The position numbers and the translations under genes are program-made. Positions 140-1,173 of a stretch of 2,313 nucleotides of DNA are shown here, piece by piece. Position 1 is the stretch's first letter, and every line of letters begins with the position of its first letter. The notes beneath the pieces were generated by a model that ran no database searches, was not told the origin of the DNA, and was given only the letters and a program-made list of their open reading frames with translations. Source of the stretch: Escherichia coli (lineage in GTDB: Bacteria > Pseudomonadota > Gammaproteobacteria > Enterobacterales > Enterobacteriaceae); NCBI RefSeq assembly GCF_024223415.1, contig NZ_CP100508.1; one strand, written 5' to 3'.

Positions 140-491
140 TCTGTAAGCGTTTTTCGCGCCTTCCATGCCCTGACGGGCATTTAGACCCCGTTTCGTGCGT
201 CTGGGAGGCTCTGAGCGCGTTTAACAGATGACCAGCGACTCGATCGCCTGAGATCAAATCGGGATCATCAACGATATGCGAGAGGTGGCACCGCTCGCCG
301 CAGCCCCAGCGACCGAGCCGCCAGGCTCGCGAGTGGGCGAGGAAGCGGAAGAGAACCGGAAGCTACATTGAGCACGCACGCTCAATATTAAAATTGTCAC
401 TTCGTAAATAGAGATTATGCCTCGTGCTTGTGGATACATTTAAAAATATAAGATATCCGAATTAGGCTACATACGGGCTGATCGCCAATGT

Positions 492-557
492 TGTAACGTG
501 TAGAAGATACACCTGTAACGTGTACAGGATACACCTGTAACGTGTGGGCGGTATTCG
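492..557. repeat. Iteron array: 22-bp direct repeats, two near-identical units plus one degenerate unit
   Basis: Unit 1 at 492-513 TGTAACGTGTAGAAGATACACC and unit 2 at 514-535 TGTAACGTGTACAGGATACACC are head-to-tail and 20/22 identical. Unit 3 at 536-557 TGTAACGTGTGGGCGGTATTCG keeps only the first 10 bp. The array ends about 80 bp upstream of the rep start codon. Confidence 0.8.
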
Positions 558-568
558 CGTAATCTATA

Positions 569-629
569 TTGAGTGACATTTTGTTTTTTGGGCATTATAT
601 TGTTTGTCACCTTTATAAAGTGACAAAGG
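569..629 (+). promoter_or_regulatory. Candidate rep promoter, operator-like inverted repeat and RBS
   Basis: Candidate -35 GTGACA at 573-578, 17-nt spacer, -10 TATATT at 596-601 (alternative: TTGAGT 569-574 with CATTAT 593-598). Perfect 8-bp inverted repeat TTTGTCAC (603-610) / GTGACAAA (620-627) with a 9-nt spacer, placed at the predicted transcript start and abutting the Shine-Dalgarno AAAGG (625-629). No transcription data; positions are from consensus matching only. Confidence 0.35.
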
Positions 630-636
630 CGATAAA

Positions 637-1134
637 ATGAACATTACTGAAAGAACGGATAGCAAGAAAAAAGTTTTAAGACAAAATATTACTGAGGTTA
701 TAGATAGAGAAACTGGAAACGTAACACAAGAAATAACCGATATAACAGTTCAATTTCCACAAGAACCTGCGTATGTGAAAATTTATATTGATAATTTATG
801 TGCTGTCACAAAAGCACCTGATTCTCTAAAAGATGTTTTATTTTTAATTCTTAGGAAATTGGATTATGACGGATATATTGCATTATCAACTAGATACCGT
901 AAGGAGATCTGTAAATTATTGGGAATAAAAGACGGAACATTACGTAACAGATTGTATTCATTATCAAAAATGGGGATTATTGCTAGTTGTGGCGGTAATG
1001 AATATCAGGCAAACCCTAATTTATTTGCTCGTGGTGAATGGAAAAAAATAATTGAACAGCGTCGCGAGTTTGAAATGAGAATTAAATATTCACCTAACGG
1101 TGAAACTATTATAACAACCGAAGAAATAAAATAA
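637..1134 (+). CDS. Putative plasmid replication initiator, small single winged-helix protein, RepL-like (165 aa)
   Basis: Intact ATG(637)..TAA(1132-1134) ORF from the six-frame track. AAAGG Shine-Dalgarno at 625-629, 7 nt before the ATG. Central segment DVLFLILRKLDYDGYIALSTRYRKEICKLLGIKDGTLRNRLYSLSKMGII reads as a winged helix-turn-helix. Overall size and layout (YVKIYI hydrophobic block, HTH, C-terminal NPNLFARGEWKK) resemble the RepL family (Pfam PF05732) as I recall it; this is from memory, not a search. Lies directly downstream of 22-bp tandem iterons. AT-rich codon usage matches the surrounding module. Confidence 0.7.
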   Translation: MNITERTDSKKKVLRQNITEVIDRETGNVTQEITDITVQFPQEPAYVKIYIDNLCAVTKAPDSLKDVLFLILRKLDYDGYIALSTRYRKEICKLLGIKDGTLRNRLYSLSKMGIIASCGGNEYQANPNLFARGEWKKIIEQRREFEMRIKYSPNGETIITTEEIK

Positions 1135-1143
1135 TGCGCACCT

Positions 1144-1173
1144 AAATAAGGTCTTTTTAAAAAGACCTTATTT
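1144..1173. terminator. Candidate bidirectional intrinsic terminator between convergent rep and RHH genes (perfect 30-bp palindrome)
   Basis: AAATAAGGTCTTTTT (1144-1158) is the exact reverse complement of AAAAAGACCTTATTT (1159-1173). It starts 10 bp after the rep stop codon and overlaps the RHH gene stop codon (1168-1170). The hairpin is AU-rich with a weak U-tract, so termination efficiency is uncertain. Confidence 0.5.

Follow-up and report, generated by a model that had tools for sequence, protein, structure and literature searches.

A RepL-family replication module with tandem 22-bp iterons on a 2313-bp cryptic plasmid of Escherichia coli

The stretch of DNA analysed here (the window, 2313 bp; Escherichia coli contig NZ_CP100508.1) is a complete circular cryptic enterobacterial plasmid, in which an array of tandem 22-bp repeats, or iterons, lies directly upstream of repL (637-1134, + strand), a gene for a 165-aa protein with one winged-helix domain. 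We estimate a probability of roughly 0.7 that the replicon is a RepL-family module of the pSN2/pHW126 superfamily, which functions without need of a DnaA box. That RepL plus the iterons form the replicon is very probable, and for initiation of a rolling-circle-like rather than a purely theta type the odds are about even. A preliminary description of this DNA had proposed a single replication module made up of the repeats and the small winged-helix gene, and the comparisons made here support that proposal. It had also regarded the initiator as unusually small and its pairing with iterons as less characterised. Neither view was borne out: RepL proteins are ~18 kDa (PMC5703833) and that of pSN2 has 158 aa, so the window initiator is of normal RepL size, and the pairing is known, with an origin mapped in pIGRK and pIGMS31, reported for pHW126 (PMC6854812; bioRxiv 10.1101/2022.12.05.519187) and found here in pSN2. 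The layout is real but ordinary, being normal and already described for RepL-type replicons.

Three iterons were identified on the + strand, TGTAACGTGTAGAAGATACACC at 492..513, TGTAACGTGTACAGGATACACC at 514..535 and TGTAACGTGTGGGCGGTATTCG at 536..557, and these are followed in phase by a fourth half-site, CGTAATC (558..564), recognised by direct reading. Tandem Repeats Finder (TRF) called positions 492-545 (period 22, 2.5 copies, 93% matches), and a separate repeat search added the third copy at 536-562. This apparently degenerate copy is letter for letter the iteron that is repeated three times in an 81%-identical relative (L008), and was thus accepted as a bona fide unit. Two adjacent 22-mers with an identity of at least 20/22 are expected by chance ~3e-7 times in 2313 bp. 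Read directly from the sequence, TGTAAC begins at 492, 514 and 536 and cGTAAT at 558; since this spacing corresponds to two helical turns, the TGTAAC half-sites should lie on one face of the helix. In six relatives the half-site position 558 reads TGTAACC, CGTAACC, TGTAATC, TGTCATC or TGTACC. The dyad within the window iteron is imperfect (GTAAC...GATAC). Many iterons of the family have internal dyads, often centred at position 10.5, such as GTACCGT-gggg-ACGGTAC, GTTATAG-attc-CTATAAC and TGTCACT-gtgag-AGTGACA, which suggests that one RepL dimer might bind each iteron.

The product of 637-1134, annotated as 'replication/maintenance protein RepL', is a single-winged-helix RepL protein, of the family that the preliminary description had guessed, and has no histidine. 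It matches Pfam PF05732 (RepL) over residues 10-138 (E 1.9e-4), and the same profile matches 21 of the 28 clade members at E<=0.001, the best at 8.5e-10. Aligned by hhalign, the clade profile matches the pSN2-type RepL alignment from end to end (99.7% probability, E 1.6e-26, 155 columns). The Pfam search gave no match to PF01051 (Rep_3), nor to Rep_1, Rep_2 or Rep_trans; no family for RepL was found in NCBIfam and PHROGs, and a sequence search of the PDB returned nothing below E 0.05. AlphaFold2 predicted a winged-helix core (residues 45-135, confidence score pLDDT ~90) with poorly defined beta-hairpin termini. The structural neighbours found were only transcription-factor-like winged helix-turn-helix (wHTH) domains. 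The protein thus combines a RepL profile match with the ~18-kDa size class and a single wHTH, and no other gene of this very small plasmid is a candidate for replication. At 90% identity, its cluster contains 241 member sequences. The recognition-helix motif TLRNRL does not vary among proteins whose half-site is TGTA(A/C)C, and is replaced by TFKN or TFNN where the half-site differs. This covariation, which is a correlation only, would fit recognition of the half-site by the helix.

The same organisation was found upstream of other repL genes. Six closer relatives (L008-L013; RepL 54-81% identical) share the ungapped upstream layout of the window with different repeat sequences, for example TGTACCGTGGGGGCGTTACTCA and TGTAACTCCCCCAAGGTACGGC. 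The shared order begins with a C-rich run (absent in the window), TTAAnAATATAAGATA and GAATCAGGC...GGCCTAGAGCC, and proceeds through three 22-mers with their in-phase half-site to (A/G)GTGACA and, just before the start codon, TGTCAC-N9-GTGACA. Arrays with a 22-bp period and differing sequences were also found upstream of rep in 2.2-2.46-kb plasmids of Aeromonas, Pseudomonas, Shigella and E. coli (L002-L005, L007), in plasmids of Arsenophonus, B. cereus and Selenomonas, in L022, in a Priestia plasmid, where the array was recognised by eye, and in pIGRK, pIGMS31, pHW126 and S. aureus pSN2. The RefSeq records of pHW126 and pIGRK were located by tblastn, with Rep queries taken by optical character recognition from the supplement of PMC2831885. 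Most of the RepL-type plasmids sampled have such an array upstream of rep. A 22-bp-period array, often with an internal dyad, is hence a recurrent feature of the RepL superfamily, and enterobacterial plasmids regularly combine it with a ColE1-type single-strand initiation site (ssiA) of fixed polarity.

The gene content of the plasmid and its exchange among relatives point to the same module. The window matches the circular E. coli plasmid pPK8275-2.3kb over its full length (99.7% identity), and at least 80% of it is matched by 18 plasmid records from E. coli, E. fergusonii, Klebsiella and Actinobacillus. Sixteen of these are 2310-2313 bp long, the two exceptions being the 2836-bp p25155 and one 79.8-kb plasmid. 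We considered p25155 (L025, NZ_CP005932.1) as a natural two-origin plasmid and rejected it, as its positions 1-524 are identical to 2313-2836; it is a 2312-bp plasmid with an untrimmed 524-bp circular-assembly overlap and no duplication of the origin. Only two genes are annotated, those for RepL and a MobA accessory protein (1168-1593, - strand), which leaves RepL with its upstream repeats as the sole plasmid-specific candidate for a replicon. Conserved region, iterons, promoter and operator, repL and terminator together make up an exchangeable replicon cassette (385..1161, +) with a GC content of 33%, against 45% in the backbone (1162-2313 plus 1-384). The backbone is 84-94% identical to that of L006, which has another RepL cassette, and L026 is a similar case. 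Two sister plasmids that reside together in E. coli strain B771, pB771_2310 and pB771_2328, have backbones 80-93% identical and differ in the cassette; the RepL of the former is 99.4% identical to that of the window, and that of the latter only 25%. Since plasmids with the same backbone and different RepL/repeat cassettes coexist in B771, replicon specificity and incompatibility are placed in the cassette. A perfect 30-nt palindrome, AAATAAGGTCTTTTTAAAAAGACCTTATTT (1144..1173), between the convergent repL and mobA genes coincides with the right cassette edge and is likely a bidirectional terminator. MOB-suite/PLSDB typing assigned 'Col(MG828)' to all plasmids with unrelated RepL cassettes (L006, L007, L026; RepL 16-25% identical), and two plasmids of this type live side by side in B771. 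The typing marker therefore seems to sit in the shared backbone and, as a practical warning, this type apparently does not report on replicon or incompatibility.

Between the left cassette edge and the iterons lies a conserved iteron-adjacent region (439..491, +). It consists of an AT-rich tract, TTTAAAAATATAAGATAT (439-456, 18 nt, 6% GC), followed by CCGAATTAGGCTACATACGGGCTGATCGCCAATGT (457-491), and was defined by a 62-nt ungapped alignment of seven plasmids in which RepL is 54-81% identical and the iterons are divergent. Its position matches the 'CR' of pHW126-type origins, its sequence differs, and it is a candidate site of opening or nicking. A conserved hairpin within 457-491 was considered and rejected, because the stems vary between relatives. 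Downstream of the array, the best sigma-70 match in the consensus scan (10/12) is the putative repL promoter (573..601, +), with a -35 element GTGACA (573-578), a 17-nt spacer and a -10 element TATATT (596-601). The -35 element starts 9 nt past the end of the half-site. It is kept as (A/G)GTGACA in L008-L011, a conservation that is explained by its being the promoter -35. An inverted-repeat operator, TTGTCAC-N9-GTGACAA (604..626), was read directly between the -10 element and the ribosome-binding site, and its half-sites resemble the iteron half-site TGTAAC. The form TGTCA(C/T)-N9-GTGACA occurs in L008 and L013, with variants in L009, L010 and L002, and inverted repeats likewise related to iterons have been described in pIGMS31 (bioRxiv 10.1101/2022.12.05.519187). 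A lone TTGTCAC/GTGACA half-site, identical to that of the operator, lies at 394-400, ~90-100 nt upstream of the iterons and near the left cassette edge. It recurs in L008, L011 and L013, and may be an additional RepL site. The operator is overlapped by a weak divergent promoter-like match, TTGTCA-16-AACAAT (9/12; 599-626, - strand), a situation reminiscent of pIGMS31 and pIGRK, for which divergent promoters repressed by Rep have been reported.

Immediately upstream of the cassette, in the shared backbone, lies a ColE1-type ssiA or n'-primosome assembly site (n'-pas; 290..353, +), with GAGGAAGCGGAAGAG at 339-353; an AAGCGG core is typical of n' sites. Positions 290-353 align in the same orientation with ColE1 1308-1367 (76% identity over 66 nt, E 7e-6). 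As RNAI maps to ColE1 645-749 on the minus strand, the matching segment belongs to the displaced strand (RNAII sense) and lies ~110-170 nt downstream of the ColE1 origin; the location and role of ssiA/n'-pas in ColE1 have been described (PMC3167613). In the window the site is ~90 bp upstream of the conserved region on the repL-sense strand, and 12 RepL plasmids of enterobacteria have the motif GAGGAAGCGGAA on the rep-sense strand, 250-385 nt ahead of the ATG. The polarity of ssiA implies that the + strand must become single-stranded. A fork proceeding from the conserved region or the iterons through repL would expose ssiA last; single-strand origins usually have such a position, upstream of the origin of a rolling-circle plasmid. 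The order of ssi, CR, iterons and rep in pIGRK and pIGMS31 is matched by that of the window. The ssiA segment was found in 1521 plasmid records of several replicon types; its carriers include plasmids of ~1.5 kb (pKL1-sized) and 4072 bp (pIGWZ12-sized), and L023, whose annotated replication initiation protein is unrelated. The segment looks like a transferable module for priming by the host, found in front of a wide variety of rep genes. Plasmids pKL1 and pIGWZ12 themselves were rejected as relatives, the common part being the ssi-containing backbone segment only and not Rep.

On the basis of these elements we propose the following cycle. RepL, probably as dimers, would occupy the in-phase iterons and the array would open or nick the adjoining AT-rich conserved region (439-491), no DnaA box being needed. 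Leading-strand synthesis would then pass through repL and displace the + strand, upon which ssiA could recruit the PriA primosome for synthesis of the complementary strand. Such a cycle may be rolling-circle or strand-displacement-like, as proposed for pHW126, pIGMS31 and pSN2, and the occupied iterons together with the operator (604-626) would repress repL and set incompatibility. In previous work the experimentally studied RepL relatives have been regarded as rolling-circle or mixed rolling-circle/theta replicons and were not classed with Rep_3 theta replicons (PMC2831885, PMC6854812, 10.1101/2022.12.05.519187). It was shown that pHW126 lost one of two tandem origins, a rolling-circle behaviour (PMC2831885, PMC6854812, 10.1101/2022.12.05.519187), and in pIGMS31 both sigma-type and theta-type intermediates were seen (10.1101/2022.12.05.519187). 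GC and AT skew track gene orientation only in the window and are thus uninformative on the mode of replication.

Several observations weigh against this explanation. A HUH motif is ruled out in RepL, which has no histidine at all, and no tyrosine is invariant across the alignment of the 28-sequence clade, so a nicking mechanism has no basis in the sequence; in the wider Rep superfamily only two invariant residues were reported, in the Rahnella paper (PMC2831885). In vitro nicking by RepM of pIGMS31 was also non-specific, occurring on pUC18 (10.1101/2022.12.05.519187). Kinship with the group in which experiments have been made appears distant, at the level of a superfamily: hhalign of the clade against the Reps of pHW126, pIGRK and pIGMS31 gave 85.5% probability (E 5.7e-6, 117 columns), and pairwise blastp E 0.008. 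The CR motif of pHW126-type origins, (C)TTGATATTACT (~20 bp, ...CTTGATATTACT...), which pIGRK and pHW126 have and of which pIGMS31 has a variant, is absent from the window, where the sole match has three mismatches, lies inside repL and is at chance level. When an nhmmer profile was made from the conserved region of the clade, distant RepL plasmids gave no significant match to it (E 0.044 in L007, at the position expected, and E 3.1 in Priestia), and deep conservation of the AT-rich element is accordingly not claimed. One RepL subgroup (L006/L026) has dispersed dyads instead of regular tandem repeats. An ssi upstream of rep does not discriminate between rolling-circle and theta replication, because it is also found beside an unrelated gene that is annotated as 'replication initiation protein' (in L023). 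Lastly, a literature search found no experimental paper on the RepL clade of the window.

A classical iteron theta origin, in which RepL on the iterons and host DnaA at 429-437 would melt the AT-rich tract and start bidirectional or unidirectional theta replication, was implied by the preliminary description and is improbable, though it is the best of the alternatives. In-phase iterons, an 18-nt AT-rich tract and an iteron-related inverted repeat at the promoter are canonical anatomy for an iteron plasmid, and theta-type bubble arcs were seen in the distant relative pIGMS31 (10.1101/2022.12.05.519187). The DnaA box on which this origin would depend fares less well. The sequence TGTGGATAC is present at 429-437, and there, on the - strand, the 9-mer GTATCCACA does match the DnaA box at 8/9, as had been stated; however, a match of at least 8/9 is expected 0.71 times per window and occurred at least once in 107 of 200 shuffles, and the site falls outside the relaxed consensus TTWTNCACA. 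No DnaA box was found at this position in any of 12 relatives, which have a C-run there, and pB771_2310, although 97% identical, has the mutated form TATGGATAC (7/9). We judge it, from these counts and alignments, to be a chance match. The same nine letters had been compared with a GGATACA core of the iterons, which is present in iteron 2 (527-533); positions 505-511 read AGATACA and not GGATACA, as had been stated. The copy of GGATACA that overlaps the DnaA-box-like 9-mer (432-438) might be an additional half-iteron. It is kept in pB771_2310, but its phase does not fit that of the array, and ~0.3 matches to a 7-mer are expected by chance. A theta origin of the classical type is further disfavoured by the single winged helix of RepL, where Rep_3, RepA or pi have two, by the lack of a PF01051 match, by the classification of RepL plasmids as rolling-circle in the literature (PMC5703833, PMC2831885) and by the strand and position of ssiA.

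It may also be asked whether the repeats are operators only, bound by an autoregulating winged-helix repressor, with the origin elsewhere, either inside repL, as proposed for phage P1 oriL, or in the AT-rich backbone at ~1750-2050. The repeats end 9-15 bp from the -35 element and their occupation would repress transcription in any case, the structure searches gave transcription-factor-like domains, and the backbone has a stretch of 18-23% GC free of open reading frames (ORFs). Nevertheless, we consider this very unlikely, since no proteins but RepL and a relaxosome accessory protein are encoded on the plasmid, the coexisting sisters with the same backbone place replicon specificity in the cassette, and in pIGRK and pIGMS31 the repeat region is a cis requirement and functions when Rep is provided in trans (PMC6854812; 10.1101/2022.12.05.519187). 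Moreover, a tblastn search of 50,697 phage records did not return P1 and detected no similarity to P1 RepL. That the array is a functionless product of chance or recent slippage duplication, as its mere 2.5 well-matched copies might suggest, can be dismissed in view of the expectation of ~3e-7 and is already contradicted by the comparative data, in which period, position and phase are conserved among relatives with unrelated repeat sequences.

A RepL module with its own iterons remains the best explanation, and the question at stake is how an 18-kDa winged-helix protein without a nuclease motif starts replication. We tentatively suggest, as an idea that is rather less than probable, that RepL proteins from S. 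aureus pSN2 to the window plasmid share one mechanism, which would be neither HUH rolling-circle nor DnaA-assisted theta: single-winged-helix dimers on dyad-bearing 22-bp iterons would alone open or nick the adjacent conserved AT-rich element, and a PriA-type ssi of the host would complete the cycle. If this were true, the 2.3-kb plasmid would offer a convenient system in which to solve the mechanism of RepL, since E. coli is its natural host and its distance from pSN2 is smaller than that of the pHW126 group. Small RepL plasmids are very common, and near-identical 2.3-kb ones occur in E. coli, E. fergusonii, Klebsiella and Actinobacillus.

Other features of the plasmid lie outside the cassette. 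The mobA product (141 aa) is a ribbon-helix-helix relaxosome accessory protein (NCBIfam NF041264, E 1e-27), and no relaxase gene is found in the 2313-bp plasmid, so that mobA is an orphan. A perfect 13-bp inverted repeat, GCGCGTTTCCGGC / GCCGGAAACGCGC, with its arms 38 nt apart, lies in a GC-rich region (2161-2224) and could be part of an oriT acting in trans. The ORF-free stretch of 18-23% GC in the shared backbone (1750-1900) contains several imperfect inverted repeats. Even at permissive thresholds, an Rfam scan yielded neither RNAI nor another RNA of replication control, its sole match being a sub-threshold snoRNA. Among the relatives, the 7.7-kb Salmonella contig L009 carries a second, partial RepL-like gene (weak PF05732 match) ~1.1 kb upstream of its RepL, and may be a co-integrate of two RepL replicons.

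Among known systems, RepL of phage P1 shares with that of the window its name and the role of a replication initiator in E. coli. P1 oriL, however, lies inside repL with an AT-rich region (PMC9948254) rather than in upstream iterons, and tblastn against the phage records detected no similarity between the two proteins. Rolling-circle initiators of the HUH and Rep_trans types differ in that the window RepL has neither a HUH motif nor a Rep_trans domain. The classical theta replicons (Rep_3/RepA/pi: pPS10, R6K, pSC101, pIGWZ12) resemble the window in their tandem in-phase iterons of ~22 bp, the adjacent AT-rich tract and the iteron-related operator, and iteron incompatibility is likely in both. 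Their initiators, in contrast, have two winged-helix domains and 250-350 aa and usually act with DnaA boxes, as against 165 aa, one domain and no credible box here.

The pHW126-like plasmids (pHW126, pIGRK, pIGMS31) have the same order of modules as the window: ssi, conserved region, repeats with a 22-bp period (20 bp plus a 2-bp spacer), promoter repeats and rep. They likewise have enterobacterial hosts, sizes of 2.3-2.9 kb and a low-GC replication module, and their Rep has one wHTH, as does the window RepL, and is autoregulating (PMC6854812; 10.1101/2022.12.05.519187). In pIGRK and pIGMS31 two-plasmid assays defined an origin made up of a short conserved region and four 20-bp repeats with 2-bp spacers, to which the pIGMS31 minimum adds IR1; Rep binds the repeats as well as related promoter repeats and autoregulates, and the ssi upstream of the origin is dispensable and prevents multimerisation (PMC6854812; 10.1101/2022.12.05.519187). 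On the other hand, the Reps of this group are of 200-250 aa and marginally similar, their relaxases are MOBV or MobK, pHW126 and pIGRK have four repeats compared with three and a half in the window, and the ssi sequence types differ.

The pSN2 family (pSN2, pIM13; PF05732) is akin to the window plasmid in the full-length homology of its RepL, in size (158 vs 165 aa), in the single HTH/winged helix and in the very small plasmids that carry it, and pSN2 itself has a 22-bp-period array of 2.7 copies 50-110 nt upstream of repL. Plasmids of this family are classed as rolling-circle and have been little studied, the mode of pSN2 being more inferred than demonstrated (PMC5703833). The differences are a pairwise identity of only ~24%, the Gram-negative host of the window plasmid, its ColE1-type PriA site in place of ssoA and its mob accessory gene; sharing of the iteron-adjacent conserved region is not demonstrable. 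Because the CR motif is absent and RepL is closer to that of pSN2, we file the window plasmid as a member of the RepL family and not as a strict pHW126-like plasmid.

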